From Malacoraja senta (taxonomy: Eukaryota), in contig CM075988.1 of assembly GCA_038087875.1 (NCBI GenBank), forward strand, positions 19,718,001 through 19,782,000: 64,000 bases of DNA, written 5' to 3'. The position numbers and the translations under genes are program-made. Of the stretch, positions 6,612 through 63,300 are shown one piece after another. Under the pieces are notes generated by a model, which was not told where the DNA came from, made no database searches, and saw only the letters and a program-made list of their open reading frames with translations. Positions within the stretch are counted from its first letter, which is position 1. Every line of letters begins with the position of its first letter.

Positions 6612-6742
6612 TTAAGAAGGAACTGCAGATGCTGGAAAATCGAAGGTGGACAAAAATGCTGGAGAAATTCAGCGGGTGAGGCAGCATCTATGGAGCGAAG
6701 GAAATAGGCAACGTTTCGGGTCGAAACCCTACTTCAGACTGA
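6612..6742 (-). mobile_element. Penelope-derived terminal repeat with decayed hammerhead core
   Basis: Perfect 13-bp direct repeats caggcgaatgtgt (6599-6611, 6753-6765); rc contains ctgaagtagggtttcgacccgaaacgtt. Confidence 0.8.
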
Positions 6743-6869
6743 TCCACACATTCAGGCGAATGTGTGCCAGTCACAGAAGTGGAACTGCAATCACGCATTA
6801 TAATTGCTCCACTCTTTTAACTCTCTACTCCTACAGCAACATTTCACATTATTCTCTTTATCATGTATC

Positions 6870-6998
6870 TCTACACTGCGAATGGCTCGATTGTAATCAT
6901 GTATTGTCTTTCCTCTGACTGGTTAGCATTCAACAAAGGCTTATCACTGTACCTCGGTACACGTGACAATAAAACTACAAAAAACTAAATTAAACTGA
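6870..6998 (+). mobile_element. Rex1/Babar-type 3' tail (shared by copies near 39405-39620, 49190-49407 and 63350-63458)
   Basis: gattgtaatcatgtattgtctttcc...tcactgtacctcggtacacgtgacaataaa(act)n. Confidence 0.7.
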
Positions 6999-7798
6999 AC
7001 GTTGTGGGCCGAAGAGCCTATTCCTGTGCTGTACGCCCTGCTATAAAGGCACCTTTCTGAGCAGCTACTTGTTTCTGAAATTGAGTTCCATTGACTTCAA
7101 ACTTAGGAATCCATCAGCAGAACTCCAGATATCCCTCCCTGTGAGCTTTGTGGACTTCCCCCAGAGCTCAGAGGTATGCTGCACATAATTGGGTTGTCAC
7201 GAAGGATAAAAGCTATATGCCACTCCAATATAAAATACACATTGGTGGAAAGATGACAGCAAAATGTTATTCTGATAGACGTGCGGAAAGGTGGCTAACG
7301 GAACAAGTGGCTGGCTCCACTGTTCATGACAGCTTAGCTATAATAACTACTCCTTGACAAAGTAAAAGCTCCACATTGTGGTCACCTCATAGATTGACCC
7401 TAACTGCCTCTGTTAGCTGAGACAAAAAAAAAATTCTCTCTGATTTTGAGAACAAAATCACTTTTGTTCAAAGCGGGCAGCCTTTTAAACTGACAGTCAT
7501 TCCCAAATGCTTCTGGCAGGTAAACACCATTTGACTTAATTGAGACTGTCATGGACACGTTTGCTGATCTTTAGCTGGAGACTCAGCTTGGCAATAATTT
7601 TGGCCGGCTTGAAATGACCTTCATTCCTCAGCCGTTATCAATAGGTCCTCAAAGAATAAAAGGACCAAACTCAATCACCCGCTTTAAATTGAATCTGATT
7701 AACTTCAACATGAAATTTCCACCAGAGCTTCCTTCATGTTGGACATTTTTTCCCTGTTTACATTCAGGATAATGTTAGTGGAACATTACATGTGAGAG

Positions 7799-8462
7799 CT
7801 AGACACAAACTGCTGGAGTAACTCAGCGGGACAGGCAGCATCTCCGGAGAGAAGGAGTGGGTGACGTTTCTCGGGTCGAGACCCTTCTTCAGACTGGTTA
7901 GGGATAAGGGAAACGAGAGATATAGACGATGAGATTACTTGACGCGGAGAGATAAAGAACAATGAATGAAAGATATGCAAAAAGTAACGATGATAAAGGA
8001 AACAGGCCATTGTAAGCTGCTTGTAGGATGAAAATGAGAAGCTAGTGCAACTTGGGTGGGGGAGGGGTAGAGAGAGAGGGAATGCTGGGGCTACCTGAAG
8101 TGGGAGAAATCAATTTTCATACCACTGGGCTGTAAGCTGCCCAAGTGAAATATGAGATGCTGTTCCTCCAATTTGCGTTTAGCCTCACTCTGACAATGGA
8201 GGAGTCCGAGGACAGAAAGGTCTGTGTAGGAATGGAAAGGCAAGTGGAGAATTATTGGAAGAACAGCATCTCATATTTCGCTTGGACAGCTTAGAGCCCA
8301 GTGGTATGAATATTGATTTTCTCACTTCAGGTAGCCCCGGCATTGCCTCCCTCTCTATCCCTCCCCCATCCAAGTCGCGCTAGCTTCTCATTTTCCCGCT
8401 GAGTTACTCCAGCTTTTTGTGTCTATCTTCGGTTTGAACCAGCATCTGCAATTCCTTCTTAC
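7799..8462 (-). mobile_element. 5'-truncated Penelope-like element (Neptune-type) with inverted terminal repeat
   Basis: rc of 8090-8205 encodes LLHCQSEAKRKLEEQHLIFHLGSLQPSGMKIDFSHFR (GIY-YIG C-terminus); inverted copy 8255-8462; perfect 16-bp TSD acattacatgtgagag (7783-7798, 8463-8478). Confidence 0.88.
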
Positions 8463-9720: not shown

Positions 9721-11739
9721 CAAAAACCTTCCACCTTCCTATTATATTATTAATGTGTTATTGGCCCCCAAAACTGCAGAAGTAACAATTTGCGTTGCCA
9801 GTACATATGACAATTAAACACCCTTGACTCTTGCACGGTAACCTCAGTTTAAAGTGTGGTCAGCAAGTTGCACTTAGTGCCTCGGATAAACCCACTTGGC
9901 AGGGACACCGTTCCTTTTTATTTTCAAATGTTGAGCAAATAACAAGATGTAAGTGCCTTTGACACTGCAAACGGACAGCTTGACTGATTTGGGGAGAGAT
10001 TCATCTGAGTAAGTTGTCTACCCTGAATTAAAACCACCCCGCTATGCTACTCTTTACTTCTTAATGGCTTCCTTTATCTGAGCAGTTGACGGGAAAGGTG
10101 AAAGAATAATTCTTTACTGCCTTGGAAACTGGCTCCAGTCACTTGGGATAAGTGGAGCCTTTGATTTATCAAATTCATCCACAGAGGACTATAATGGAAT
10201 GGATGATAAAACTTACTAAACACAGTTAAAAGGCAACACATCAGAATTTTCAACAAGCAAACTTTAGTGATGTACACTCATTCTTGCCTGGGAAGTGGAA
10301 TGCTGTGCATTCCTAATTGCAGCAACACACATGGCATCATTGGAAAAATTGCAGGGAATGTTCTATACTCCTCCGTCAAATTCCAGCATGAAATTCCTTG
10401 GTTTCCTGACTTTGAATCTCGTTCTGTGCAGACTGAGATACCTTTGACCAGCATGATATGGAATGCATTGTGATATTGTGAAAAGCTCTGATTGATGTAG
10501 GAGCTATGTTGGCCTGCTAATGTGGGACTATTGCCAGGACTTGATCAGTTTCCACACAGTCATGGAATAATTTGTTTAAGATAACATTGCAACCTTAATT
10601 TTCCATGCCACGATATTGACTGAGAACATTTTTTTCTAATTTCAACGAGCATTGGAAACCTGTTTAAACACAGGAAATGATGGAAAGCAGCTCCGGAGAG
10701 AGCGATGGAATTAATGTCAGCAGATCAGGTTAACAATTCCGTTCCAGCAGCCCACGCAGGGGGCTCAAAAGGCAGAGCAGTCATTAGCATCTCGCCAAGG
10801 CCCTGAGACCACAGAGGCAACATTGGAACAGACCGAATGACTGCAACATCAGAAATTATTTCATGGGAACAAGAGTCCAAGCTGGGGATCAGAACTGTTT
10901 ACTTTTTCCTTCACAGGCTTGCCGTTGCACTGACAAAACCAGCATTGACTGCCCGTTGCCCAGTGCCCCATCACTGGGTGACCTTCTGAGCCATTTCCAA
11001 CTGCAGACTAGAGGCAGCCTCAGTACTATGGACCCAACACCACGCATGAACCAAACTGGATATTACCCCGAAAGGACACTTATGATGGGTTTTTGCAACA
11101 ACTCTCCAGCTTTACATTCTCTTCTCCTCTTCTCTCCTTATCTGACACCCTTTGTCCCTTACTCCACCCATCTGCCAATCGAACCCCCCCCCCCCCCTCC
11201 CCTGTAACCGCCTATCACTCGTCAAGCCTTGTCCTGGCCCCACCTCTCTTTTCCACCTTTCTGCCCCCTACGCCAATCAGTCTGACAAAGGGAAGATAGA
11301 CACAAAAAGCTGGAGTAACTCAATGGGACAGGCGGTATCTCTGGAGAGAGGGAAAGAAGGAATGGGTGACAACTACATCTTTGGAGAGAAGGAATGGGTT
11401 GACAGGTAGCATCTCTGGAGAGAAGGTCCAGACCCGTAACGTCATCTGTCCATTCCCTCCACAGATGTTGCCTAACTCACTGTTCCTTCAACACTTTGTG
11501 CTTTAATCAGCTAGGTACTTGGACAATGGCACTGGGTTTTAAAGGAGTTTATTTAACAAGTGGACATGTTATGATCAGGTTTGTTCTCTAATCATTAGTC
11601 CAATCTCTGGATTACTGGTTGTCTAGTCTGCATTGAGGAGAGCCAAGTCATTGTGATATTTAAATCAGGCATTTCTGAGCAATCTTTGTCTTTTGACTGA
11701 AGCGGTTTTCATATAAAATAAAATATAAAAATATATAAA

Positions 11740-16048: not shown

Positions 16049-17153
16049 AGGGCCTGTTCCACTTGGCCATCATTTGCGCGCCATTTACGCGACCTCCAAA
16101 AATTTGGTCGTCGCGTGGTAACGCACGGGTAGTGTGTGGGTAGCATGGGACGGGCGCATGGAAAGGCATGGAGGAGTGTGGAGTTGTGCGCGGTATCGCG
16201 CGGCGCTCCAGGATTTCATCCTGCATGAAATCTTTGTGCGCCACTGGCGTGGCGTATCGCTTACGCACGCGGACGTACTGCGGTCGCACGCTGACGTCCT
16301 GACCTCATACATGTAGTGCGTGGTGACGCATGATTACATCACCGTGCGTAACCATGTGCCGCCGTGCACCGCCCATACGCAGTCGGCCCGCCTTTTACTC
16401 GTCACGGATAAATTTGCACAGTTTCGTAGAGAAAACTACGTGGTGAACACCAAAATAGACGAAACCGGAAAGTGCAAAAGTGAATTGATGCTTCACTTGC
16501 AATGACTGCTTGGGTCCCTGGATTGTGGGTAAGGAAGAGGTTAAAAAGAAAAATGTTGTATCTCCTACAGCTGGATGGGCGAATTACATGAGAAGGGGTG
16601 CAGTTGGTAGAAATGGAAGAGCAAACCAGATAAGTGATACAAAATGCTGGAGTAACTCAGCGGGACCGGCAACATCTCTGGAGAGAAGCAATGGGTGACA
16701 CTTCGGGTCGAGACCCTTTTTCAGACTGAAGAAGAGTCTCGACCCAAAACATCATCCAGCCCTTCTCTCCAGAGATGCTGCCGGTCCCGCCGAGTCACTC
16801 CTGCATTTTGTGTCTATCTTCAATTTAAACCAGCATCTGCAGTTCCTTCCTACAGATTAATTTGGTTTGCAGCTTGCTACTTTTCTTTCACCTCTTTTTT
16901 TGAATAGGGGCATTACATCTGCAGTTTTCCAATTGCTAGCATCACTCAAGAAACTAGAACATTTTAGAAAGTCACCATAAGTATCATAAACTGGGTAAAT
17001 ATCATAAACTGGATATTCAAATGACATCACGCACTCCAGACGGCTGTGCTGACGCATGAAGACGCGTGATGACACGCGCTACATTTGCGCGACTGTCGCG
17101 CGACAGTCACTACCGGCCTGTCGCGTAAATAACGGCCAAGTGGGACAGGCCCT
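16049..17153. mobile_element. Non-autonomous PIF/Harbinger-type element with foreign interior
   Basis: TIRs agggcctgttccacttggcc / ggccaagtgggacaggccct; TAA on both sides (16046-48, 17154-56). Confidence 0.85.
16633..16853. mobile_element. Palindromic Penelope terminal-repeat pair with decayed hammerhead cores on both strands
   Basis: Arms of ~90 bp centred on ttcagactgaa (~16720-16730): tcgggtcgagaccctttttcag | ctgaagaagagtctcgacccaaaac. Confidence 0.85.
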
Positions 17154-17989: not shown

Positions 17990-18930
17990 AAAAGACACAA
18001 AGTATTGGAGTAACTCTGTGGGTCAGGCAGCATCTCTGGAGAACCATGGAGAGGGGATGTTTTGGATTGGAGCCCTTCTTCAGTCTGATTATAATGGGGA
18101 GGGGGAGAAAGCTGGAAGAGTGGTTGGGGCGAGGCAAAGCCTGGCAAGTGATCGGTGGATACAGATGAGGGGGGTTATCAGCAGATGTTTGGGAAAAGGC
18201 CATAGACAAAAAGACAAATAACAAGGGCAAAAAATGAAAAGACAAAAAGTGTGAGATAAGGATATAAGAAGTGTGAATTGTGAAGCCAGAGGAAGGAATA
18301 TAGGTGGAAGGGACCGTGGAAGAGGAGAGGGGAGAAATGGATGCCAATCTAGGTAAGGGGAAGGGGTTTGTAAGTTAGTTACGTAAAATTGAAGAATTGA
18401 ATGTTCATAGCATTGGGTTGTGAGCTACCCAAGCAGAATATGAGGTGCTGTTCCTCCAGTTTGTGTGTCCTCACTCTGGCAATGGATCCAGGTCAGTAGG
18501 ACAGAAAGGTCAGTATGGAAATGGGAAGGGGTGCTCAAAGAATGGTGTGCTGGTTGCAGAGGCAGGTGGGTGTAAGGTGAGGACCAGGGCAACTCTACCC
18601 TTGTTCCGTCTGGGGGGAGGGGGAGTGAGAACCACCACAATCAGTCTGAGGAAGGGTCCCGACCCGAATAGTTACCTATCTACATTGTCCAGAGATGCTG
18701 CCTGACGCGCTGAGTTACCCCAACACTTTTTTGTCTTAGCCTGTCTCTAAAGTCCTCCCTCCCCCTCCTCCACCTGTCACCATTCTCCCGTCGTACAACA
18801 CCTGCTTCCACCTATCATCCGCCAGACCTGGTCTCACCCCTCCCTCTCATCTCCATATACCTGCTGCCTGACCTGCCAAGTTCCTCCAGCACATTGTACC
18901 TTTTATTGTAAACCAGCATCTGCAATTCCG
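17990..18930 (-). mobile_element. Decayed Penelope-like element with inverted terminal-repeat pieces
   Basis: acccaagcagaatatgaggtgctgttcctccagtttg (GIY-YIG C-terminus, rc); terminal repeats at 17990-18090 (minus) and 18640-18730 / 18860-18930 (plus). Confidence 0.75.
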
Positions 18931-19819
18931 TGCCCCCATTTTTCACATCCACGCTTAATTCATTTTCGCCCAGCTACGCCAGCTGAAAATGCAAGCTGTG
19001 AAAGTTTGAATTCTCAGAGTCTGCAGGATTGATGCACTATGCAAATGCTTGCTGCCATGGTTTACACCACTTAAATCGATTACTACCCTGCAACCCACAA
19101 TGCACAATCCATCACCTAGAGGAAACATTCTGAAATATGTTATTACATATATACCATTTATGTCAGGAATTTTCCAAGCCTCAACAATTATTTTTTGTTT
19201 CTGATTAATGTTAGGTTCTTGAGTAGCTTTACTAAACCGCCAGTAACTGGAGAGGGCCAGTTGTGCTGCAGCATAATTGAAGAGCTTCTGCTGCAGAAAA
19301 TGACACATCATTTCCAATTCCACACACTGTCTCCACAGCTGTCTTAGCGATGAAGCTGGCAACAGTGGATTAACCTCCCGAGAAAGCCAAGGTATTGCAG
19401 TTTATTCTGAGGACTTAAACCTCTTCAAGATGTAATTCATTCACCTGAGCATCATTGATCTTCAACCACACTTACTTTTTCCATTTGCGATCATATTTTT
19501 TTTGTTCGCTTGTCCCCTGGCTGCAGATTTCTACTGCGATGCGAAGAAATAGAAACGAGGAGCTTAACTACTCCGAAGGAACTGTTAACACAGTTTCGGG
19601 CAACTTAATGAGGCTGATGGTTAAAGAGGGCCCTGGATTTCCCATGGAGAAAGCAAGGCGGTGGAGAATTGGCTCGTTGTCAGGTGAATTGGAAGTGGAA
19701 GTGAATCAGGTCTTGGTAGACCAGTTTGATCATCACTGGCGTGCTGATCCAACCTATGAACCTGAGATTTTGTTCTGGAGCTTGGAATAGTGGAAGGCCA
19801 ATGAATTGAAATTAATTAA

Positions 19820-20136: not shown

Positions 20137-20669
20137 ATTGGGAAGGATACTACATCTGGTGGCATTAGCTGGTGCAGCGCAGATTCTCATCTGCCATTCA
20201 CATTGACTCACGGGAATAAAATATGGAGAGGTTAAATTCAAAACCAGGTACAAGGGCTGCAATTAACAACTAACCTGCTCCTGATTGCAATGCATGCAGG
20301 CAAACCCCTTTCTGTTGCCTACTTATTATAGGTGTCCCCAGAGTGAAGTACTCTGACCACTGGTTGCCCTTACCATCACAGAACAAAGAACTGCAGATGC
20401 TTAATAAGGACACGAAGAGCTGGAGTAACACAATGGTGGATGTCAATGTGAAGGTCGTATGTTCTCCCTGTGACCACGTGGGTTTCCTCCGGGCGCTCCT
20501 GGTTCCTCCCACATCCCAAAGGCGTGCGGTTTTGTAGGTTAATTGGCCTCTGTAAAATATCTATCTCTCTGTGTCCTCATATATATTTGTTCAATACTGC
20601 TCCCACATCTGGTTTTTCTCCAAGCTGAAAAGTTCATCTGAGTTAGTAACCTACTTTCTCTTTTAAAGA

Positions 20670-20802
20670 ATGTTTAAGAAGGAACTGCAGATGCTGGCAA
20701 ATCGAAGGTCTGAAGAAGGGTTTCGGCCCGAAACATTGCCTATTTCCTTCGCTCCATAGATGCTGCCTCACCCGCTGAGTTTCTCCAGCATTTTTGTCTA
20801 CC
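20670..20802 (+). mobile_element. Mini Penelope-derived insertion with hammerhead-like core
   Basis: TSD-like ttctcttttaaaga (20656-20669) / ttctcttttcaaga (20803-20816); inverted tail fused to ctgaagaagggtttcggcccgaaacatt. Confidence 0.8.
20706..20741 (+). ncRNA. Minimal type I hammerhead ribozyme-like motif
   Basis: aggt-CTGAAGA-a-GGGTT(tc)GGCCC-GAAAC-att-gcct: conserved core, helix II, and a possible 4-bp helix I (aggt/gcct). Confidence 0.6.
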
Positions 20803-22472
20803 TTCTCTTTTCAAGATGTGCCTGACCTGCTGTGCTGTCCTCGTGGTTTCTGTTTGCATTTCAGCTTCCCAGCATTTATGGTTTTTCTTTTCATCTCCGA
20901 TGGAGATATCTATCTGCTCTCTTTGCAGGTGATGGTCCTTGTCGTGGTAATCGGGCAAGGACCATGGTTGTGCGACCAACTAAATTTAATGACCTGCAAA
21001 AGGAGTCCGTGACGTTAACTCAGAGAACACTGACCGCGGCACATCCCAGGATGGCGATGATTGGCATGAACCACAAAGGGGAGCTTCATTTTCCTTGAAG
21101 AATCTTACACCTTTGCATGTTGCAAGCCCCAATGCGTGCAAGATTGGCTTTCCTCTTTGAAGCGAATCCACTGGCCGACATCTCACATGGAGAACGGCCC
21201 TGATTAGCCACACATGACTGGCTAAGATCATCAGCAGACAAAACAGATGGAGCGTCGTGACAGGTCTCAGCTCCCACTGATCTTCACAAGGTTAGCAAGA
21301 AAGATCCGCAGCAAGTATTTTGTGGCAAGTTGTCAGCTGCGTGCAACTAACAAAGGAACTTTGAAGGACTTTTGATCTTCCTTTCTCTTTAATCAGATTT
21401 GCCGGAAAGCTTTCAGCTGCTGCAGAGTTGGAGTGGTGACATTCCCCTTGAACCGAGAAGGTTGAGAGGAGATGTGATGGAAGCGGACAAGATCACGATA
21501 GGTTTGGGCAGTAACGAGGTGGAAACCTTTCCGATTAGTGGGTGATGTAAGAAATCCGGGAATAGAGTTTCAAAATTGGAGGCAAAACGTAACGAGGGGA
21601 AAGTGAGGAATATCTTTTTTTTTAACGCAGAGAGTAAATATTCACCAGATATAAGGGTAGCAGAAAGAGAATCCATCAAGAGAGATTTGTACAGGCAGCT
21701 GAATAGAAACAATTTGATGTGGCAGACGGTTTAGAGAATGGGACTGATGGGATTAAATGCCGGCATCCAGGGTGGCTGGCCAAATTATCTCCTTCTCTGC
21801 AGTTGCAATTCAATAATTTTAAATTGTCTTGTTTGCCTGCAACATGATGGGACCCTTACAACAAACATCTGGGAACATAACATAGAAGTTTTCTTTTAGC
21901 ATTTAGTGATTGTGTGAAAACCCCAGCTTTAGCACACATATTTGGATGAGGGTAATTTGACCAAAGATCACAGGAGTAAGATTTCAAAGTAGTTTTAACA
22001 TCCTTTATTCATTGTGGTAATTTATGGACCACTATGATGATTTTTTTCTCCTGCAGAATAATATGGATTATAATTTGTTATTTAAAACTGAAATAATCAG
22101 GCATCTGCTAATTAACCTTTAATCCTCAGGATAAAAGGCTCTATTAAAAATAATTAGTAATTTGTTTGAAAGAAAATCATGGGAAATATCTCCTGTTGAG
22201 AAATGTGATTGAAAGCACTTTGGAGCTTTCAAATGCACGAACGTACTGAAGAGTGGGCTCCGTTAAATTGCCCCAGTAAATTAACATTCCATGGGACTGA
22301 ATTTTAGTAGAGCCAACTGCTTGCAAAAGTTGATAATGTTTCATTTATTTGTTCACTCCCATGATAGAGCCAGGGAAATATGCTTGATGCAATGACTCAG
22401 AGGAGGACATGTTCCATGGACAACAAAACCCTGCATATAAATAGCAACTTGAAGGTTTAGAGAAAATGCGAG

Positions 22473-24348: not shown

Positions 24349-25872
24349 CGGTTGTGTACTCTACCTACACACATCCCTCGGTAGGCCATTCAAGAATTAG
24401 TGGGTTTCCTTTTGTATGGAGAGTCCGAACATACAGATAGTACAGATTTTTGTAAGTGTTTAACAAAAGGGACCCTAACGGACAGCAACAGGACAAGTCA
24501 TGGACACTAAGAACTGCAGATGTTGGTTTACAAAAAAAACACAATGTAATGGAGTAACTCACCTTGTGTTTTTTAGATATGATGGGAATAAGGAAATGGC
24601 TAAGGAATTATAAACAAATATGTTTACCATTATTGAATGCAAATTTGAGTGCAGGAGTCAAGAAGTCTTATATATTGTGATGCATTTATATGTTGTTTAC
24701 TCGAGTTTAGAAAAACAGCATGAAAACAGGCCCTTCAGCCCACGCCAACCATCGATCATCCATTCACATTACTTTTATATTACCTAACTTTCTCATCCGC
24801 ACGAGGACAATTTACAGAGGCCAAATAGTTCAGATTAGTTCATTGTCATGTGCATCGAGGTACAGTGAAAAGCTTCTTTGTTGCGTGTTATTCAGTCAGT
24901 GGAAAGGCTGTACATGATTACAATCAAGCATCCACAGTATGTAGATACAGGATAAAAGGTATAATGTTCAGTGCAAGATAAAGTCCAGCAATAGTCTGAT
25001 GGTCTCCAATGAGGTATATGGTAGGTCTTTGGGATGTGGGAGGAAACCAGTGCACCTGGAGGAAACCCATGCTGTCACTGGGAGAACATGCAAATTCCAC
25101 ACAGGTAGCACCAAATGTCAGGACATGTCCCCTGGATGCGGAGTCTCGAAGCAGAAGTCATAATCTCTGAAGAGTGGAGGCATTTAGGACAAAATGATGA
25201 GAAATGTCTTTACATAGAGTGTGGCGAATTGTTGAAGTTCTCTGCCCCATAAAGCTTGGGATACTCAGTCACTGATTTCATTCCATGGATGGATTTCTGA
25301 ATATTAAGAATACAGAGGGGTAAGGGGACAGTACTGGTAAATAACGGTGGTCAAAGATCGGGTATGATCTTAATGAATGGGAGAGTGGGCTTAAAGGACC
25401 TATGGCCTGAATCAAAAGTCAGGAGTGTTTAATTGACACATGTACCAGCAACAGAACAATGACATTCTTATATGCTGCAGTTTAAACATAATAACTCACA
25501 ATTAAATGTTCATACAATGTTAAAAAGCAGTAATACCAGGTAACATTAATAATGCAAAACTCAGGCCCTTAGTGGAACCAAAGACACAGTCCATTCAAGA
25601 TCATAGTTGTTGGGGTTAGTGTTCAAAAGCCTGATGTTTGCTGGAAAATAGTTGTTCTCTTCCTGGAGGTCAGGGTTTTCTGGCTCTTCCCAAAGGTAGT
25701 AGCGAGATGAGAGCATGCTTAGGGTGGTCTAGGTCTTAGCTGATGAATAGAATGACTACTCCTTTAAACTGTGCTACAGCCAAGTTATTGTGCTGCCCAA
25801 CAACATATCAAGCATGGGGACTGTGCATTAAACACTCGTACCATCTTCAATGGGAACTTGAACTTGACATGT

Positions 25873-26079
25873 GTAGGAAGAAACTGCAGATGCTGGATTA
25901 AACCAAAGACAGACACAAAAAGCTGGAGTGACTCAGAGGGACTGGCAGCATCTCTGGAGAGAAGGGATGGGTGACGTTTCACGTCAAGACGTCTGAAGAA
26001 GCGTCTCGACCCGAAATGTCACCCATCCCATCTCTCCAGAGATGCTGCCTGTCCCGCTGAGTTACTCCAGCATTTTTTG
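25873..26079. mobile_element. Palindromic Penelope terminal-repeat insertion
   Basis: Long inverted arms around 25985; plus-strand core ctgaagaagcgtctcgacccgaaatgtc; TSD ttgaacttgacatgt (25858-72) / ttgaacttcacatgt (26080-94). Confidence 0.85.
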
Positions 26080-26737
26080 TTGAACTTCACATGTTTGTAT
26101 TTCATTATCAGCGGGTATTATTTTTTGATCATTTAATTTAAAAATGCATTCGGTGTTATTCACAATCTCAGTCACAAGTTCAGAAGCAAATCTCGCAGAA
26201 CACAAGGCAAACCTATTGTTCCGCACTAGCTAACCCTCATCGTTACCCCACCCTATGGCCAGCCCCTGCTCCTATCCCAGCCTCACCTTTACCAGCATTT
26301 GTTACCTTCAACGAAAATGCAGGCTGCGTACATCATCAACCCCCTCGATCACCCCTGGAAGAACATTACCATAACAATAGGTGACCTTTAGGAACTGTAT
26401 GAATTCCATTTCTAGACTGCTGCTTCAGTTTGGAAAGAAACGTAGAGAAAACAAAGAACATTTAATGAAAGTAGTTGTCATAAGGTTAATGATGCAGCTT
26501 GAAATGATTTGGTGAATTGATTACAATTATGATAATTATAATTCTGCAATGCGCACAAAGGCTTTGATTCTAAGAATAGAATGCTTTGGAACAGACTTCC
26601 CTGTTTTTGACATTTGAAGAGTTCTCAAGAGTGTAGAACAAATAATGGTTGCTGTGGGCTCCAAGGGATATATCTCCAGCGTAAAAGTTCTTGTTGCGAC
26701 GAGGATTCTTCAGCATGTTTTTGAAGCAATGACTTTT

Positions 26738-27020: not shown

Positions 27021-28019
27021 TAGCCCCATTTTCTGGGAAAGGACACTGAGATTAAATTTGGGGGATTATGTGTCGACAACGGGGGATTATGTGTCGATTA
27101 TGTGGTACCAACCTGAAGCAGTTGGTGTAGGTAGTCCAGGTCACAGGAGCATATGGAAGGGCAGGCATCACTGCCATCAGGTACATCATCAATTTCATGT
27201 CAATCCTAAGATCTTGTTCTCCAATCGTCCTTTTCCTCAATGAACGGTAGACTGTGCTGGTGTGTGGAGGGTGGTTGGGTGGGTGGATGGGCTGAATCGT
27301 GCTCTCAGCCTCCACCATGCCTCGGGACCCCTGCACATCCAAATCTTTGCCCTCCTGCAACACACACCCATGAGTCTACCGAGGGACCAGTGAAGAAGGC
27401 CTCCTTGCAAAAACATCCACTCCTCAACCCGCTGCTAGTAAGGGCAGCGAAGTGAATGGAGATTTCCTACATTTCTGAGGTGGGCAAGTGGAGGTCACTG
27501 ATACTGTTGGCAAAAGGTGAATGTTTAATGGATACACCAGGTAACTACAGATGCTGGATTCCTGACCCTTCTTCAGGCTGACAGGTCAGAGTTTGATTAT
27601 GGGTCACGACTTGACATATTGTTTGTCCATTCCCTCCACAAATGCTGCTTGACCCGTTGAGTTCCTCTTTTGCTTTTTGCAGTAAAATGTTTAAATTATT
27701 TTACTTTATTTAGAGTTTAGAGATACAGCATGGAAACAGACCCTTCGACTCACCAAACCCTTCGAGTCAGAATTGAACCCTGGTCTCTGGCGCTGTAAGG
27801 CAGCAACTCTACCGCTGCGCCACTGTGCTGCCCCACCATTGATATTTTGAAGCCTTGATATTTTAATTTAACTTTTAACTTTTAAAATATTTCAAATATT
27901 TGTTATTGCTTCCTCCTTATTCAGATGTATTGCATTTAAATGTTGGACCATTCGTGACATCACAAAAAAAATTGCAAAAGCCTTTGGTCTACTGTGCAAA
28001 GCACCATGGATAGCCACAG

Positions 28020-30430: not shown

Positions 30431-30466
<36 letters not shown>

Positions 30467-30493
30467 ATGATTATTATTATGATTATTATTATG

Positions 30494-30540: not shown

Positions 30541-30781
30541 CTATTTTGCCCACTGGACTGTGGTAATTCTTGCACAAACCTAGATCCCTCTGTCTGTTCC
30601 TCATCTGCAATGTTTCTCCATTTATCTAACGGTCTGCTTCTTGATTCCTCTTGTCAAAATGCAGGACCTCACACTTTCCCACATTCAACTCCATTTGCCA
30701 AGTTTACACCCACTCACTCAACCCATCTATATCCTGTTGCAGAGTTGACATGTCCTTGTCACAACAACCTTCTCTCTATCT

Positions 30782-30912
30782 GTCTGAAGAAGGGTCTCGA
30801 CCCGAAACATCACCCATTCCTTCTCTCCAGAAATGCTGCCTGTCCCGCTGAGTTACTCCAGCATTTTGTATCTAAATTCCATTTAAACCAGCATCTGCAG
30901 TTCTTTCCCACA
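30782..30912 (+). mobile_element. Solo Penelope terminal repeat starting at the hammerhead-like core
   Basis: gt-CTGAAGA-a-GGGTC(tc)GACCC-GAAAC-atc at 30784-30811, then the canonical tail to aaaccagcatctgcagttc. Confidence 0.82.
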
Positions 30913-35888: not shown

Positions 35889-35889
35889 T

Positions 35890-42800: not shown

Positions 42801-43214
42801 GGGTAATTGAGGCTCTCGTCAGGAAAAATATGGAGGTGTGGGTCAGGTATAGGCATCTGGGATCAAATCTATCTCTGGAGAAATTTAGAGGATTGAGAAG
42901 TATGCTTAAGAAGAAAATCAGGAGGGCAAATGGGGTGCATGAGATAGCTCTGGCAGTTAAGATTATGGAGAATACAAAGAGATTTAAGTATATTAATATT
43001 AAAGGGAAAAGGGTAAAATAGGGCCCCTCAGAAACCAAAGTTTCTATGAATGAAATGAGTGAATTAAATTTGTTCTGATTACATTAAACAGAAAAAGTAA
43101 TCATCATTGCATGTGGATATTCATCGTTGTAAAATACTGACCTTACAAATAAGGTGTAGGAAGGAAATGCAGATGCTGGTTTTATCCAAAGATAGACACA
43201 AAAAGCTGGAGTAA

Positions 43215-43785
43215 AGGGCCTGTCCCACGAGCATGTGACTGCATGCGACTAGCGCGACCTAACGTGGTCGCGCTAGCCGTGCGGCCTCGCGGGGCCGGTC
43301 CCACTTTGATCGCCGGAGCCGCGTGGAGTTGTGCGGAGCTGGTCCCGACATCGCGCTCCGAAAAACTGACAGTGTTCAAAAATTCCGCGCGGCAAAGGCC
43401 TGTTGGCCCGCTGCCGCATGGAGGCCGCATGGAGGCCGCACGCACCGACTCGACGCCGCACCCACCGCCTCGAAGCCGTACGCAGCGTCTTCACAGTGCG
43501 CAGCGTCTTGATGGCGTACACCTAGCGCGTGGCGTTGCGCGATGACGTCACCACCCGGCGTGCCATTGCGTGATGACGTTACGGCCCGACGCCGTGCGAC
43601 GTCCAAATTCAGTCGGCCCGCCTCCTGCCCAGCTGATTGGTGAGTATGATGTCGGGACCAGCTCCGCACAACTCCATACGGCTCCGCAGTTGGAAGTGAG
43701 ACCGGACCCGCGAGGCCGTACGCCTCAAGCCACCACGTTTGGTCACGCTAGACGCATGTAATCGCATGCTCGTGGGACAGGCCCT
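43215..43785. mobile_element. PIF/Harbinger-type MITE, CpG-rich
   Basis: Perfect agggcctgtcccacgagcatg TIRs; TAA TSD; removal restores ggagtaactcagc, seen intact in other Penelope copies (e.g. 7815). Confidence 0.93.
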
Positions 43786-43829
43786 TAACTCAGCAGACCA
43801 GACAGCATATCCAAAGAAAAAGAATAGGT

Positions 43830-43857
43830 GACGTTTCGGATTGTGACCCTTCTTCAG
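43830..43857 (-). ncRNA. Minimal hammerhead ribozyme-like core with intact GAAAC-GTC
   Basis: rc reads CTGAAGA-a-GGGT(caca)ATCC-GAAAC-GTC; helix I weak (2 bp). Confidence 0.55.
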
Positions 43858-44689
43858 ACTGAGAGTCAGAGGAAAGGGAAATGAGAGATATAGATGGTGA
43901 TGTAGAGAGATATAGAACAGAGGAATGGAAGATATGCAAAAAAGTATCGATGATAAAAGAAACGGGCCATTGTTAGCTGTTTGCTAGGTGTGAACGAGTA
44001 CAGACAATGAGACTCAACAAGATGACCTTGAAGCTGGTACGACTTGGGTCGGAGAGGGATGGAGAGAGAGGGAATGCAGGTGTTACTTGAAGTTGGAGGA
44101 ATCAATATTAATACCACTGGGTTGTAAGCTGAGCTAGCAAAATATGAGATGCTGTTCCTCCAATTTGCATTTAGCCTCACACTGACAATGGAGGAGGCCT
44201 TTTGTGTCTATTTTGCTCTGACAATGGGGAAGGCTTTTTGTGTCTATCTTACAAATAAGATGCTCATTATGGAAATGACATGACTTTCATCTTCATTGCT
44301 ATCCATTTCTATCATGGGTTCTTACCCACAACACCAGTTAGATGTCCAGAAGACAAAATAAAATCTATCCCAATGCCTCATCGGAAATAAGATCTGATTT
44401 TATTTAATATATTGACAATCAAACTAGTGAAAATCAAACTAGATTCATTTGGAATTTTAATTTTTATGGAAAGGAGGACATCATGCTCTTCTGAAGCCTG
44501 TGGGTCCTTAAACTGCCAAGAAAGTTTTTATTGCCAGTCTCCGTGGATTAGTTGTCTGCTCTACTCTGTCAAATACCCGTTGAAATGCTGTGAAAAATGT
44601 ACTGGTGAAATTCCAATTTGGCTCTGATAACTACATAATGCTCAATACACCCATCGTGTACTCTTTGCCAATTCTTGTAAACAACATTC

Positions 44690-54945: not shown

Positions 54946-54978
54946 GAGTGTCCCATTCCCTCCACAGGTGCTGGCTGG

Positions 54979-55040
54979 CTGAAGAAGGGTCTCGACCCGA
55001 AACATCACCCATTCCTTCTCACTGCCTGTCCCGCTGAGTT
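54979..55040 (+). mobile_element. Penelope terminal-repeat fragment starting at the hammerhead-like core
   Basis: CTGAAGA-a-GGGTCTCGACCC-GAAAC-atc followed by tgcctgtcccgctgagttactccagc. Confidence 0.78.
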
Positions 55041-56725
55041 ACTCCAGCATTTCTGTCTAGCTTCGAAGAACATAATACGTTGGGAGATGGAAAAATCAAA
55101 GACCACTGAGCCACTTTACATCTATGCGAGATTCTATCGAGTAGCAAATGCCTCCCTAGTTGCTGTTACCTAAGTTGGAAGTGAATGTTCTCATTCACCC
55201 TTGGGTGGAGATTTCAGTAACGGTACACACCATCATTATGACAGTAAAGCAGGCAGTTTTACAGTTTAACTACCGCATAGCTCCATGAAATCGTAACGCG
55301 TCAGCTGCCTGGAAGATTTATTTTTGTTCTCCATCGCGGTTCTCAATTGCCTTCACTCGCACTTTGCTATCCCAACAGATCCATTGCAGCAAGCGACCGG
55401 CACAATTTATTCCATAACCACTGTTCACAACCCATTCACAGGCACTGAGATGGAACTTGATTGTGGTGATAAATTGTTGTCAGTCTCTCTCCTCTGCTGG
55501 TGTTGCTAGTAACTTGGTGTGTTGTAGCATTTAAGAAAGAATTTATCTTAATCTGAAGCAAAGGTCTCCATTCATCAGCAGCTCACTTTGGGAACTCCTT
55601 GGCTGGTGAGTTCATCTTTAGTAAGTAGACATTTCATGATTTGTGGCTGTCTATGCAGTAGACTGAAGTGGCAGTGTAGAATCTCCAATGCACTCGTGCC
55701 CTTGATGTTTTGGATTCAAGGCAAGTCCAGAGACTTGCTCTCAACAATCAAAAGTTGTCTCTAGCTTGTTGCCTGGGAAGTACTACACTGTTAGAGATCT
55801 TCTCTTCACCCGAGACATCAAATCAAGAGCGAGGTTCAATGGCAGACAAGATAGTAGCCTCAGTATGACACTGCTTCAAGAAGTTGACTTCTTCAAGATA
55901 CTTCGTCAGTCTAAGAAAGCATTCCGGCATAAAACATCACCAGTGTATTCCCTCCACAGATGCTGCCTGACCCGTTGAGTTCTTCCAGCAATTTGTGATT
56001 TGCTCAAGATTCCAATACCTGCAGTTCCTTGTGTCTCCAACATACTAGCCTTATGACTGCCCTTATTGACCAAGGTGTAGGCCACATGAATAGGGAGATC
56101 TTGCTAGGTTTGTAAAAAACACTAGTTAGCCACAGTTGAGCAATTTTGGTCAACAGGTTGAGGAAAGAGATGATCAGACTAGATAGTTCACAAGGGACAA
56201 TTACAAGGATACCACCAGGGCTGAAGAATTAGAGTTATGAGGAGAAGCTGGCAGAATGGAGTTATTTCTTCCTGCGGGATAATGGAAACTGTGGGGAGTT
56301 TAAGTTTAGATATGTAAATGAAAAGCGGGTGAGCTGAATGGTCATTGTCCATGAACAGAGATATCAATCATTGGAGAATATCGATATTAATTGAGAAAAG
56401 TATTAGAGGGGAGATAAGAAAATATTTTTTTCAGCCTGTAGGTGGTGGGAGGCCGGTACTTAAAGCTTAAAAGGGTGGTAGAGGTGGAGAGTCTGCCGAT
56501 AGGCCTTCACTTTATCCATGGTCCTCATCATGATCTTTTGTTGTTAAACAGTGTCTAATTCGCAAACACTGCCAGTATATTACCTCAAATCCCATCTATT
56601 GTCATTTTATTTAATGAATTTGAGTAAATTGATTGTCTCGGATGCATTCCCATAATTAAATAAGAAAGATGCTGTGGAATGTGCTCAATGTAGAAGGAAG
56701 GAGCTCGTAGCATGCACACCCTAAT

Positions 56726-57042: not shown

Positions 57043-57477
57043 AACAGGTCTCCATTCACTCCACATATGTTGCCTGAGTTACTCCAGTATTTTATGTATT
57101 TAGGTCAACTACCAACAAACTTCACGGAAGCTTTTAGGTAAGTGTTGGATATATCGTATATATTTTTGCAATTGCAGGGCCCTGGGTAAAGTGTTGAGGT
57201 GGGAAGAGTAATTGTAAACACCTTTGCAGACAGGGAGACATACAGTAATTGTTTTCAGATTGAAGAAACATATTACCAGAAATTCAATGAAGGAAATAAT
57301 GAGGAACAAAAGGAATAATTTGGGATTTTGTTCCCAATTAACTAAATCGCATAAATGAAATAAGCTGCTCCCAGTCACACACACATTCAGGTACATGCAC
57401 AAACTGTACATACACCATATAAAGGAAAGTCATCTGCTCACACCAGAATGACTACAATGGATTTATTCTGAAAAGAA

Positions 57478-57930
57478 CTGAGTGCTGGAGTGACTCAGCG
57501 GGTCAGGCAGCATCTCTGGAGAACAGATGGGTGATGTTTTGGGGTTTTACAATGGGACTGTTCTTCAGACTGATTGGGAAAGGGTGGGGGGAGTAAGAAA
57601 GAGAGAAGAGACAGGACAAAGTATGGCAGCTTCTTCTGCGTATGGCATGCACGGCCTAAAGTAGAGGGTCAACTTGTTCTATTTGATCTTGTTTGTGCAC
57701 GTTGGGTTGATTGCATTAATCGAAACAGGGTGGACCCACGTGATGGTTGCAATCTCCCATCCCAGTATGGCAGCTAATAGGTAGACACAGGCGAGGTAGA
57801 TTGTTGGAACAAAGGCCAGAGATAAAAGCAGAAGGTGTGAGACAGACTGATGGAAGAATTGCAAATTGTGAAGCCAGAGGAAGGAATGTCAGAGGAAGGG
57901 AAGGGGAGAAATAGGTGAGAATACCGTTGG
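57478..57930 (-). mobile_element. Penelope terminal repeat / 3' UTR with a nested unrelated insertion at ~57620-57775
   Basis: gtgctggagtgactcagcgggtcaggcagcatctctggag...aattgtgaagccagaggaaggaatg; agtatggcagct duplicated around the inner piece. Confidence 0.65.
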
Positions 57931-59652
57931 GGCGCAGGGAAGGGGAAGATTCCTTCTGTATGGGCTGATAGACACAAGTAATTGGAGTAGTTGTTGCATT
58001 GTAGTTAAGAGAGACTAAATATATTTTGAAAGCAAAGATCAAGTAAAAGATTTCAAAACCCTTAAAGAACATTTTTAATTCCACTGATCATTTCAATAAT
58101 CTAAATCTTATTGCTGTCAAGTCTGTGCTCTCATTACTGCAAAAACATAAAAACATTTCCTAACTGTGAAACTATTGGTGAGCATGGTTTCTTTTTTTTA
58201 ATTCATTGTCCGACAAGCACAGGACTCCATCCTTTATCGTTTGAGCTCCCTTCATTACACAATACAATTACTGGCACATTTTGATAAGCAATTCACTGCT
58301 TGTCCTGAGCATTGATTTAGTGGTGAAGCATTTATGTTCTTTGTAACAGAAATGGTCGGAGTTTCTTAATCACATTAATCATCAAACTAAAAAGGAAAGT
58401 AGCCTCAGTTTAAGCAAGTGGGGATGCAAAGAGTCTTTTACCTAGGGTAGGAGAATCAAAAACGGAGGACATGGGTGAGAAGATAAAGATTGAATAGGAA
58501 CCTGATATACAACTTTGAAATCAGAGGGTGATAGGTCGATGGAACGAGCTGCCTGAGGAGGTAGTTCAAGCAAGTACAATAACAATATTTAAAAGACATT
58601 TGGACAGGTAGAGTCTCCTTATCAATGAGTAGATGGATGTACAATTGAGGGACTGCAACAAAGACTGGATTGAAATAGACTTGAACTGTATTCTCTAGCA
58701 TTTCAAAGAATAGGAGGACATTCATCAGAATTTATGAAATCCTTGATGGGCTTGTACGGCTAGGTGGGAGGATGTCGTCCTTAACTGAGGCGTCATCGAC
58801 AGGGAGGACAGTTCAAGATTTAGGCATTTTAAGGACAGAGATGAGAAATTTCTTCACTCAAAGAGCAGTGAAACTTTGCAATTGTCTAGAGACAGAGTTG
58901 GCAGATGCTGGAATCTTGAGCAAGAAAATAAAGTGCTGGATGAACTCCCCTGTCAGGCAGCATCTGTGGAGGGAATAGACAGGTGCCATTTCAAGTCTGG
59001 ACCCTTCTTTCAGACTGATCTGAAATGTTGTCTGTTCATTCCCTCCACAGATGCTGCCTGACCCATTAAGCTTCTCCAGCACTATGTTTTTTTTGCTTTA
59101 TCTACTTCATTCTTTTATGTTCATCTAACATACAGTAGGAATTGATATATTTCTGAACATTAAAGTATCGAGAGATAAAAAAAAAGCTTCAAGGGGATAT
59201 TGACAGGCTGTATGTGAACAATCATGATTTTAATGACTGATCGAGCAGGGTTAGAGGGCCAAAGGCACCACCACTGCTGCTAATTCTTATGTTCTCAACA
59301 GGTTATTTTCCCAGTGAACCAGACTATCCATTCACCTGAAGCACTCAGCATGTCACGCAGCATCTGTGGGCCAAAATTGACGATACCTCATCAAAACTGT
59401 GATGAAAACAAAAGTGAGAAGGCAAGCATGTTTTGAAGAGTGGAGGAGATGGGGGGGAATAGTGGGAATGTCTGTGATAATATGCAGACCCAAGTTGTTT
59501 CAGGTTGTACTCAATTATTTTATTTTCCCCAACGTATATGATGAAGGAATGGGGGAAAAAAGCATTCTTTGGTTTTTCGTGCTGCATGTATATGTGCACT
59601 GACCTCCACACATTCATTCTTCCAATGTACTGGGATGGGCAGAGAGGAGTTT

Positions 59653-60319
59653 TAGAAACATAGAAACATAGAAAATAGGTGCAGGAGTAGGCCATTCGGC
59701 CTTTCGAGCCTGCACCGCCATTCAATATGATCATGGCTGATCATCCAACTCAGTATCCCGTACCTGCCTTCTCTCCATATCCCCTGATCCCCTTAGCCAC
59801 AAGGGCCACATCTAATTCCCTCTTAAATATAGCCAATGAACTGGCCTCAACTACCTTCTGTGGCAGAGAGTTCCAGAGATTCACCACTCTCTGTGTGAAA
59901 ACGTTTTTCCTCATCTCGGTCTTAAAGGATTTCCCCCTTATCCTTAAGCTGTGACCCCTTGTCCTGGACTTCCCCAACATCGGGAACAATCTTCCTGCAT
60001 CTAGCCTGTCCAACCCCATAAGAATTTTGTACGTTTCTATAAGATCCCCTCTCAATCTCCTAAATTCTAGCGAGTATAAGCCAAGTCTATCCAGTCTTTC
60101 TTCATATGAAAGTCCTGACATCCCAGGAATCAGTCTGGTGAACCTTCTCTGCACTCCCTCTATGGCTATAATGTCCTTCCTCAGATTTGGAGACCAAAAC
60201 TGTACGCAATACTCCAGGTGTGGTCTCACCAAGACCCTGTACAACTGCAGTAGAACCTCCCTGCTCTTATACTCAAATCCTCTTGCTATGAAGGCCAACA
60301 TACCATTCGCTTTCTTCAC
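59653..60319 (-). mobile_element. 5'-truncated CR1/HER1-type LINE, same young subfamily as 12586-15558
   Basis: Open ORF 59750..60343 through to the natural stop (GYGEKAGTGY); near-identical to 12586-13260; (tttctatg)n tail. Confidence 0.95.
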
Positions 60320-63300
60320 CAGAGGCAAGTACAATAACAACATTTAATAGACACTAGGACAGGTACATGGATGGGAAAGGTTTCAAGGGATATGGGACAA
60401 ACGTAGGCAAACACGACTAGCATAGATGGGGCATCTTGGTTGCCATGGACGAGTTGGGCCGAAGGGGTTGTTTTGTACTGTATGACTCTATGGCACCATG
60501 ACCTCTTACTCGCATTCAGGGCCAGCGGTTAAAGGCAAATTTCCTCTCCGTCCTACAGGGCAATTTTTCTTGGGACTCCACAAATACTAATGGTCCAAGA
60601 TGCCCAGAAGATCAACAGCCCCAAGGCAGACATACGTCTGTGCTTGTCTGTTAAAAGGGAAAGAGCAGACTTCCCATTCTCAGATGATCAAAACTATCTA
60701 TTAAAGGTGGAGGATATCTTTCACATCCAGCCTGTCATTGTTACTTAGAAGATGCTACAGTCAAGGCACCAGGATTCGCAAATGAACGCTGAACTTTGAA
60801 ATGACACTGGTGACTTGCATCAAATGAGCAGCTACAATGATTGGGTAAAGAGAGAAGCATAATACGTTTTCAAATTTCATACAGGGAGCAATTGTCAATG
60901 TCTGGATGACAATAAATAGAAGTAACTAGAGTAATTTAATATCTAATGTGCAACCACCAAAATCCAATGAGGACTGACAATGAATGTTATAGAACAGCAT
61001 TCTACAAGATATCATTCAGCTCAAGGCAATTACTCCTGCGTAATCTCAGTATTGAGTCTGTTTCTTTCCCTCTGTGTTTGCTGTGTCATGCACACACAAA
61101 AAAATGGAAGCTTCAGAACCACCCAGTATTTTCAGTTTGATGACTCCACCACACTTCACGCGGGCAGCTCCTGGTTATTAAACGTCCCGTCCCCCCCCCC
61201 CCCCCCCTCTGCAGGGAATTGTCAGTGGGGATGGGAATGATGTAATCTTTACTGTCACCGCGTATCAACAGATGGCAATCCTGGGCGGCTGCAAGAGAAT
61301 AAAACATCACTGCTCCGCGCTCAAAATGACAGGAAGGGCGTAAATTATATTACAGTAACATTACAGAAGTGACTTCACTACAAATGGATGTGATTCTGGA
61401 AACAGATGTCAATGCTGAAGATCTGTGCACCTCAAATCGGCAATGCTGTCCCAATTGCAAATCCATTGAGCTCAGTCTGTGTGGTAGCTGGAAAATATAC
61501 AAAATATATCCACAACTCCTCCATCCATAGATCACCCACCCCCGCCTACCCGCGTCCCCTATTTTTCCTCTATATTCCTATTCCCTTCTACCCACCATCT
61601 GATTCTATGTTTCTCTGCCCACTTTCCTTCCTTATCATATTCTATCATTTCCACATCACCTCCAGCCTTGGTTACCATCTCCACCCTTCTCACCCTCATC
61701 TCTCAAACAACCTCACCTTACCCAGATCCGCCTACCACCTGCCTGGTCTTGCCTCACCCCTTCGCCTTGCCTCTTTCTACCCACTTTCTCACCACTATTC
61801 CATAACTGGAGAAGGGTCCTAACCCGAAACATCGCCTGTCCGTGCCCTCCGCAGATACCGACCGTCTGTCCCGCTGAATTCCTCCAGCAACTTTGGTGCA
61901 AAACATAATGATTGTTTAAGAAGGAACCGCAGATGCTGGTTTAAATCGAAGAAAGGAGATGAGGAGGAATGTCTTTAGTCAGAGGGTGGTGAATTTGTGG
62001 AATTCATTGCTGCAGAAGGCTGTGAAGGTCAAGTCAATTAATATTTTTACGGCGGAGATTGATATATTCTTGATTAGTGCAGGTTTCAGGGGTTATGGGG
62101 AGAAGGCGGTAGAATGAGAAGGTGGTAGAATGGGATTGGACCCACTCACCGCGCTGCTGGGAGGAACATAGAACACTGCGGCACAGGAAGAGGCCCTTTG
62201 GCCCACAATGTTTGTGTCCAACATAATCTCATCAACCTGAAGATGATCCATATCCCTCTATTCCCTGCACTTCCATGTGCCTATCTAAAAGCACCACTAT
62301 CATATCTGCCTCCACCACCACCTCTGCCAATGCATTCCAGGCCCCCACTGTGCCCTGCACATCTCCGTTAAACTTTCCCCCTCTCACCTTAGTGCTTTCC
62401 TGAGAAAATGATTAGTGTATTTATTTACAAGTTGGGGGTGTGTGACAGGGAGAGGAGACTGTGATTGGTGATGAGCCATGCACCAGTTCTTACAGGTGGG
62501 AGCGTTGTTGGGATTCTGAGATTTTTTTTTAAAAAAGCAAAAAACAGAAATTGCCGAAGGAAAATCATTTAATACTCTATTGGTTTTTCTACCAAAGAGA
62601 TTTCAAAGCCAGTAAAGTGAGTAATTGGTAACTGTCAGTGTGACTAATACGGGTCGTATATGTTACTTGTTTTAGTTTAAAGCAAGTCCCAAGTCAAAGC
62701 TTTGGAGGAGACATCCAAGAGAAGAGAAAATAAGGTGGACAAGAAACCTTCTTCTGTAATATAGACTTAACTGCAAAAACCTTACAGAAATAGCATTTAT
62801 TAGCCATGGACAGACAACAATTTAAAAAAAACATGTTCTGACATGCTCACACATAAACAGATTAGGATTTTCCATTATTGGTAGAAACAGAAAATTGGAT
62901 TGAGGAAAAACCTCTACAAATTTAAGTTGATCTAATTTCAGCATTCATTCCTGCAGATGGGCTTGTTTTCTGGGTTGTGTGTGTTTTTTTGAGCAAGCAC
63001 ATATCTGTGAAATAAATGCATTCGGCAGCGTTGTGGTCCCTTGGGTTAATGTGGGAGAGTGGCTTTAGCACCAGCAGTGTGGGATATTCGATGTGGCTCA
63101 GCAGATGTGGTCTTGTCTGATTTCATTGCGTTTGTTGGAATGGACAATGTTCTCAGATTACAAAAGCTGGTCAACGGTTGAACCTTCCCTTTTAAGAATT
63201 GGTTTCCCCAAATGATATAAAAATGTATCAGGAGAGAAAGAGCCCAAACTTCACATTATTTTGTAGAAATACAGATCAAATCAAAAGGAGCAGACACCGA

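Follow-up and report, generated by a model that had tools for sequence, protein, structure and literature searches.

The 64,000-nt stretch of the Malacoraja senta genome analysed here (GenBank assembly GCA_038087875.1, contig CM075988.1, positions 19,718,001 to 19,782,000 of the forward strand; hereafter the window) harbors a hammerhead-ribozyme-like motif that recurs on both strands, and the question is what carries these motifs and whether they can cleave RNA. A first-pass annotation, made from the letters alone, had assigned them to about 20 terminal repeats of Penelope elements. We conclude that they very probably belong to dispersed, mostly 5′-truncated end pieces (a pseudo-long terminal repeat, pLTR, with an optional tail) of Penelope-like elements (PLEs) with a GIY-YIG endonuclease (EN), likely of the Neptune type. 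Each piece would carry the sequence of a minimal type I hammerhead; its counterpart in the parent would cleave RNA only when dimerised or helped by the element's protein, and almost all copies here have probably lost activity. The sequence of the motif, its place behind the EN stop codon, the tail and inversion anatomy, the target duplications and the CpG decay are observed directly.

All per-copy counts rest on the window, and positions within a copy are numbered from hammerhead C3 as 0, which puts the predicted cut between +27 and +28. The core pattern gave 11 matches, four of which are unrelated to the repeat, and it is present at all seven sites that the first-pass annotation had called clear (20710, 25993, 30784 and 54979 on the plus strand; 7867-7892, 39113-39136 and 43834-43857 on the minus strand). 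Strict cores, defined as CUGANGA, one base, a stem of at least 4 bp and GAAA, occur five times, compared with a mean of 0.015 (maximum 1) in 200 second-order Markov sequences. An nhmmer profile of the repeat (~95/135 nt), seeded with 17 copies, yielded 50 matches at E ≤ 10 and 35 at E ≤ 0.001, the latter including the 17 seeds; the 11 sites previously listed as decayed all fall inside these matches, that at 16700-16750 being two back-to-back copies. A core-blind profile built from the downstream part of the unit only, to which pieces starting beyond ~+60 are invisible, gave 36 matches. The whole hammerhead core is spanned by 21 copies, 11 on the plus and 10 on the minus strand, so the figure of about 20 is correct for core-bearing copies. 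As no exon of a host gene was recognised in the window, the strand split has no gene to be compared with. For 20000-24000 no RNA data set was listed as containing the stretch, which says nothing about expression.

The repeat is also abundant in contigs from sequencing runs of four organisms (X1, X2, X3 and X7), with 138,245 matching contig records in the best run and 138,465-173,672 in the other three, although depth there does not equal copy number and these figures are not copy numbers. The core is short and four unrelated pattern matches do occur, but chance matches or an assembly artefact, which we consider next to impossible, are refuted by the excess over the Markov controls, the common 95-135-nt context of the copies and the abundance in contigs of all four organisms. 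An Rfam search of the window gave no hammerhead match to the motif. Its MIR533 match (41 bits against a gathering threshold of 80) was rejected, as it corresponds to the inverted pair at 25930-26063.

We aligned 21 rows of the core (alignment A2), leaving out three partial copies from 24. The family majority is CUGAAGA followed by an additional A, a helix II of 4 bp whose first pair is G-C, GAAA, C-G, U and then C or U; helix I has 2 bp. The CUGANGA and GAAA boxes, U16.1 and H17 are therefore all present in type I order, and the earlier identification as a minimal type I hammerhead agrees with the published consensus. The extra base after A9 is A in 20/21 rows, and the 10.1-11.1 pair is G-C in 14/21 and G·U in 4/21. 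The palindromic 15.2-16.2 pair, which lacks a helix III loop, is C-G in four copies and takes CpG-decay forms in 16; G12 shows CpG-type loss in seven. As CG at 15.2/16.2 is restored in the loose-end consensus of all four runs, its loss represents decay after insertion. Helix II is 84.5% paired, compared with 16-43% when the whole structure is slid along the copies, and helix I is 78.6% paired. Helix II had been drawn as a 5-bp stem, which would leave a 2-nt loop; a stem of 4 bp closed by a 4-nt loop is the better reading. For helix I, 2-4 bp had been given: 2 bp is right for the main families, while 3-4 bp occurs in one old, heavily decayed copy (38514), whose different, compensated helix I (GGTC/GACT) is a single hint of selection between families. 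In the phylogeny of the 21 rows, the GTT type forms a supported clade of three (100/99), in agreement with the proposed GTT subfamily; support is weak for the remaining rows, which fall into a younger GTC group of 8 and an older, mixed one of 10.

The nature of the parent element is indicated by what lies upstream. In four copies the unit follows the stop codon of a PLE EN on the coding strand, at distances of 199, 226, 299 and 547 nt, as the first-pass annotation had placed it. tblastn located EN C-termini at 8094-8261, 8255-8320, 18385-18468, 39311-39400 and 44086-44226, a decayed GIY-YIG core with two internal cysteines (CxxC) at 39738-39830, and a PLE linker/EN relic near 16450-16541. A 51-residue piece at 8094-8246 gave 17 protein matches among 51 candidates, and all six that are named to species come from skates or rays. 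The longest informative match, P0003 from Mobula, shares 62% (E 3e-16) and 55% (E 4e-10) identity with the two best EN C-termini of the window; it joins this EN type to a reverse transcriptase (RT) with YIDD and possesses a CX4CxxC linker and a GIY-YIG domain with two internal cysteines. Pfam recognised GIY-YIG in 7/12 relatives, all under the curated cut-off, and gave no match when searched with the window's own EN fragments alone. According to the account of Craig et al., 2021 (bioRxiv 10.1101/2021.04.23.441226), a CX2-5CxxC linker marks Neptune and Nematis, not Penelope/Poseidon. The earlier Penelope parentage thus holds at the level of PLEs, given the PLE endonuclease C-terminus upstream and the tail and inversion anatomy described below, but probably not in the narrow Penelope/Poseidon sense, the parent being more likely of the Neptune type.

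Pieces of this PLE endonuclease also appear as exons in three batoid gene models, P0001 (neuromedin-U receptor 1), P0014 (DCC isoform X2) and P0015 (myocardin isoform X3). Two of these stop at a common LQ(P/S)S point, suggestive of a splice donor.

Several results weigh against this overall reading. tblastn found no RT relic in the window, and neither an intact RT nor a full element lies within the 64 kb; the three linker Cys positions are decayed in the window relic at 16540-16590, which is why the Neptune clade is likely rather than demonstrated. All 13 core letters are kept in only two of the 21 copies, one of which has a 2-nt insertion before GAAA. The previous description of a very high-copy ribozyme-bearing system is therefore sound as to abundance and overstated as to ribozymes, at least one core letter being lost in 19/21, mostly by CpG decay. 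The caution that it expressed about activity was justified. Helix I, at 2 bp, is below the 3 bp of the published consensus. A check for helix I/II covariation, made on the 21 window copies, was negative: pairing was 76.8% against 77.9% after shuffling, with one two-sided change against 2.5 and 498/500 shuffles scoring as high, although 21 decayed copies provide little power. Helix II had been said to vary while keeping its pairing, which lends no structural support, as the changes are one-sided (G·U wobbles and transitions) and not compensatory. Compensatory changes would support membership among the minimal hammerhead ribozymes (HHRs) but are not a requirement for it. Conservation of the core was likewise little above that of its downstream neighbours: non-CpG core identity was 0.93, against 0.88 and 0.90 in two downstream blocks, and selection on catalysis is therefore not demonstrated. 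A first core-versus-flank test (0.93 vs 0.77, p=0.001) was rejected, as the copies had been picked by their core and the flank included unaligned ends. Finally, the predicted probability of helix II was ≤0.15 in 8/10 copies and that of helix I ≤0.13 in 10/10; in these predictions the ground state is not the ribozyme fold, and G8-A9 and the helix II 5′ strand tend to be taken up by pairing with the pyrimidine tract downstream.

Such results might mean that the motif is a vestige, its letters kept by descent or as a protein-binding signal with no cleavage in any form. The absence of covariation, the 2-bp helix I, the high variability of the segment with the helix I 3′ strand (identity 0.70, the most variable) and the predicted pairing of the core with the pyrimidine tract would all fit, and the anole element PAc (Poseidon of Anolis carolinensis; Frangieh et al., 2024, PMC11167929) reportedly did not need cleavage in vitro. 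However, every subfamily has the core letters although neighbouring sites vary between them, wobble maintains pairing where the helices differ among subfamilies, the old copy at 38514 has its compensated helix I, and published members are also described with a 2-bp helix I. We regard the vestige as a less likely explanation, if one to be taken seriously. The decay, the lack of covariation and the predicted folds would still be compatible with activity in the parent element, because the published minimal hammerheads are described as cleaving weakly and as dimers, and the anole one as active only with its protein (PMC11167929).

The anatomy of the copies is that of PLEs. The unit ends near +85 to +95, or 35-40 nt further when the tail is present. 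Nine inverted pairs were found, of which seven have a tail on one end only, two on neither and none on both. Target duplications of 14-17 nt are firm in 3/22 copies tested (6737, 20710 and 39136) and possible in one (36542); three of seven candidates (18083, 38761 and 59013) were dropped as low-complexity or internal matches. The tail test overlooked a degenerate tail at 55911. Copies 18646 and 38761 have in common a partial tandem consisting of a unit, a truncated untranslated region (UTR) and a second unit with tail, with 247 nt between the two like-oriented cores of the 38761 copy. The described signature of PLEs comprises inverted truncated copies, tails on one side and partial tandems, and the head-to-head pairs with a one-sided tail, the 14-17-nt target duplications and the partial tandem are accordingly standard PLE anatomy. 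The features of the window are as follows (ORF, open reading frame).

6609..6743, minus: solo GTT-type unit with tail; C3 6737; 14-nt target duplication (1 mismatch); 8-nt inverted target copy at the 5′ junction
7790..7897, minus: GTC-type unit without tail; C3 7892; predicted cut after 7863; all core letters kept; 2-nt insertion before GAAA
7898..8090, minus: parent-element 3′ UTR, pyrimidine-rich; ends CAG/T directly before the core
8091..8261, minus: C-terminal end of the PLE GIY-YIG EN and stop codon; 62% identity to P0003
8255..8464, plus: inverted arm; last EN codons, partial UTR, deletion, 3′ half-unit with tail
11285..11500, no single strand: decayed inverted pair; short internal reiterations; neither arm with tail
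16636..16853, no single strand: head-to-head pair; centre 16725 on TCAG-A-CTGA; tail on the plus arm only
17993..18625, minus: long arm; ORF remnant with EN C-terminus (18385-18468), 3′ UTR, unit with C3 18083, no tail
18638..18932, plus: inverted arm; unit with C3 18646, truncated UTR, piece of a second unit with tail (partial tandem as in the 38761 copy)
20664..20803, plus: GTT-type unit without tail; C3 20710; inverted 45-nt tail piece in front; 14-nt target duplication around the whole
25871..26080, no single strand: head-to-head pair joined at GTCT microhomology; C3 25993; tail on the minus arm only
27564..27667, no single strand: decayed inverted pair; two short arms
30779..30912, plus: solo GTC-type unit with tail; C3 30784; G16.2 lost to CpG decay
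35280..35399, minus: old decayed unit with tail
36540..36635, plus: solo unit without tail; starts within the CUGA box; possible target duplication
36988..37108, plus: decayed unit with tail
38388..39400, minus: partial tandem; EN C-terminus (39311-39400), UTR, unit 1 (C3 38761), truncated UTR, heavily decayed unit 2 (C3 38514) with tail
39033..39138, minus: solo GTT-type unit without tail; C3 39136; nested in the UTR of the 38388..39400 copy; 15-17-nt target duplication
39738..39830, minus: decayed GIY-YIG core; two internal cysteines; other DNA between the core and its C-terminus
41667..41930, no single strand: inverted pair with short spacer; C3 position 41802; tail on the plus arm only
43155..44235, minus: long copy; EN C-terminus (44086-44226), UTR, core with all letters kept (C3 43857), tail at 43155; 3′ half split by an inverted-repeat element at ~43215-43785
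54975..55066, plus: GTC-type unit without tail; C3 54979; behind a piece of an older unit
55907..56036, plus: old decayed unit with degenerate tail
57471..57900, minus: unit with interrupted UTR, no tail; C3 57568
58901..59090, no single strand: head-to-head pair; centre 59012 on TCAG-A-CTGA; plus arm without helix II; tail on the minus arm only
61640..61895, plus: old unit with UTR; C3 61806
647..746 (minus), 47256-47349 (minus), 51710-51803 (minus), 57051-57106 (plus) and 59343-59370 (minus): further partial pieces

Three of these copies show peculiarities at their junctions. At the 5′ junction of the 6737 copy (6745-6766, minus), the 8-nt inverted target copy follows the duplicated target, as if the target end had folded back before joining. 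Inside the decayed inverted pair at 11285..11500, a 34-nt unit is reiterated 2.3 times at 11351-11426, and the reiterations restart at ~+26 to +28, about the predicted cut site, in this single case. The pair near 16725 is flanked on either side by ~12 nt that are inverted copies of one another, and beside it lies a decayed PLE linker and EN start (16440-16600, minus) interrupted by an inverted-repeat element.

We then asked where the copies begin. Among the 36 core-blind matches, 24 reach -5 to +3, six of them being long copies that continue into the UTR; short pieces starting at -8 to +3 number 18. Of the rest, seven start at +4 to +21, two at +22 to +33 and three further down. Short copies thus begin at the 5′ edge of the ribozyme and not at the cut site, near which only 2/36 pieces start. 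This scarcity is in line with uncut RNA serving as the template, as for the anole element. The 5′ boundary of four copies rests only on missing likeness to the UTR.

The initiator consensus is YYANWYY, and the letters TCAGTCT at the 5′ edge fit it. The ~95/135-nt unit might thus be a non-autonomous element of its own, like a short interspersed nuclear element (SINE), transcribed from TCAGTCT as its initiator and copied at full length by the PLE enzyme. The 18 short pieces starting at -8 to +3, no short piece being seen to start higher in the UTR into which six copies continue, and the solo units with their own target duplication agree with this, and initiator-like motifs have been described in rotifer pLTRs. 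But a 3′ splice site or a fold-back palindrome would account for these letters just as well, the upstream boundary of those four copies is defined only by missing UTR likeness, and subfamilies whose UTRs differ have the boundary in common, as would be expected if it came from the parent. Such an independent unit appears unlikely.

Somewhat less remote, yet still improbable in our view, is a boundary created during copying, when the complementary DNA (cDNA) folds back, or two cDNAs anneal, at TCAG-W-CTGA and second-strand synthesis starts there, giving head-to-head pairs. Two pairs, at 16725 and 59012, have the palindrome TCAG-A-CTGA at their centre, its right arm being the catalytic CUGA; in that at 25993, the join by GTCT microhomology lies 1-2 nt from this point. 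Odd palindromes with 4-bp arms occur at only 0.5% of window positions, and palindromes at inverted junctions have been read as self-priming in rotifer PLEs. Against this, other inversions break elsewhere (8255, 11415 and 20709), any exact head-to-head join creates a palindrome, and a strand-switch joint at this place was absent among the 15 of 589 contig joints that were examined. Among the papers listed by our literature search, none dealt with a palindrome at the CUGA box.

The boundary might instead reflect splicing, as CAG/T before the core resembles the 3′ splice site of Drosophila virilis Penelope, whose intron is described as ending at helix I; copies of spliced RNAs would then start at -1/-2. 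Upstream of the core the pyrimidine fraction is 0.77-0.89 in six long copies, CAG stands at -4 to -2 in 15/21 rows per column, and seven pieces begin at -2 to 0. Yet the entire UTR is pyrimidine-rich, the joined form skipping the UTR was absent among the same 15 joints, and a search for exonised sense-frame peptides returned one protein, which does not start at the site. We find this account doubtful, more so than the preceding ones. Initiator, fold-back priming and 3′ splice site would all fit the TCAGTCT letters equally well.

A head-to-tail joint that goes back 88 nt, from -2 to ~+85, was found in all four runs (10, 5, 6 and 3 contigs). It would supply the dimer context of retrozyme-like arrays; no tandem array with at least two complete HHRs occurs in the window. 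The 88-nt stretch (window 7807-7894) is equal to a tail-less unit starting two bases before C3, possibly joined by GTCT microhomology.

A bolder version, which we offer as speculation and think improbable, is that the hammerhead 5′ edge is a programmed boundary of PLE copying, at which the TCAG-W-CTGA palindrome (or the initiator) releases the ribozyme-bearing ~95/135-nt unit as a SINE-like element. If the density of this one window is extrapolated, a batoid genome might hold between some hundreds of thousands and a million copies, and rare young head-to-tail or partial-tandem pairs might still cleave host transcripts.

Returning to truncated PLE end pieces, the copies could arise as follows, judging from other PLEs. 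The RT-EN of the element would nick the target DNA and copy uncut element RNA from one of two neighbouring starts, the end of the ~95-nt core or that of the ~35-40-nt tail. Copying would usually halt early, often with inversion, and leave solo or head-to-head units. The high copy number would then be due to the RT start site lying just behind the ribozyme, and not to selection on each ribozyme.

The window contains other repeats as well. An inverted-repeat element with ends AGGGCCTGTCCCAC, which we take to be a PIF/Harbinger-type miniature inverted-repeat transposable element, lies at 43215-43785, 16050-17153, 36256-36489 and 54168-54812; the first of these splits a repeat unit, with TTA duplicated. 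Broken relics of long interspersed nuclear elements, presumably CR1-like, occupy 12885-15358 (minus), 59750-60343 (minus), 8899-9456 and 35445-36164, and Pfam matches to an APE endonuclease and RT fall at 13569-15355 within one of them. Simple repeats comprise (ATG)n passing into (ATT)n at 30428-30545, (TGG)16 at 23983-24030 and an 18-nt GC-rich array at 44732-44857.

These results add skates and rays to the hosts of PLE minimal hammerheads. Their practical value is statistical, as the many insertions would allow genome-wide mapping of 5′ ends, inversion points and tail use. Such maps would bear on how PLEs are copied and on the stage, before or after reverse transcription, at which the ribozyme acts. 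The family itself was not encountered in our literature search, which yielded a count of retrozymes for a single chondrichthyan, from a study whose supplements may already list it.

Minimal HHRs in the pLTRs of metazoan PLEs were described by Cervera and De la Peña (2014, PMC4209133). The motifs reported there share with ours the type I order, CUGANGA with an extra base, G10.1-C11.1, GAAA-C-G-U-H and the lack of loop III, as well as a pyrimidine-rich 5′ flank, several families per genome, and mostly dispersed single motifs from truncated elements with some close opposite-strand pairs. Here, in contrast, helix I has 2 bp (3 in their consensus; 2 in Culex, D. virilis and Oikopleura) and helix II has 4 bp. 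With 21 cores in 64 kb, the density greatly exceeds that reported for coelacanth and Xenopus, where a genome gave 4,000-9,000 descriptor hits, with the caveat that the counting differs. No chondrichthyan is found among the motifs of their Fig. S3 or Table S1, a statement that does not extend to supplementary file 1.

With the EN-containing PLEs of the Neptune clade, as portrayed by Craig et al., 2021, the parent shares the C-terminal GIY-YIG with internal CxxC, the CX2-5CxxC linker (here seen in the closest relative, P0003), partial tandems, an inverted 5′-truncated copy and a tail at one end. It differs in that the window provides no RT and hence no tree, and Nematis, which has the same linker, would be an alternative placement. 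In PAc, the HHR likewise lies ~100-130 nt before two RT start points between which the tail is defined, and uncut RNA is the template; no genomic or RNA ends are reported at its cut site, where genomic starts are rare here. PAc belongs to the Poseidon clade, has its ORF start in helix II and shows protein-assisted activity, whereas the present element is probably of the Neptune type and known from sequence alone. Non-LTR retrozymes derived from PLE pLTRs (Li, Clavereau and Pollet, 2026, bioRxiv 10.64898/2026.07.22.740005) resemble our copies as pLTR-derived type I HHR units with dispersed monomers, and are reported in the one chondrichthyan genome sampled. They are defined by tandem arrays with at least two complete HHRs, whereas the window holds only a decayed partial tandem with cores 247 nt apart. 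The PLE-borne minimal hammerhead arrangement has thus been known since 2014, and retrozymes were already counted in a chondrichthyan in 2026.

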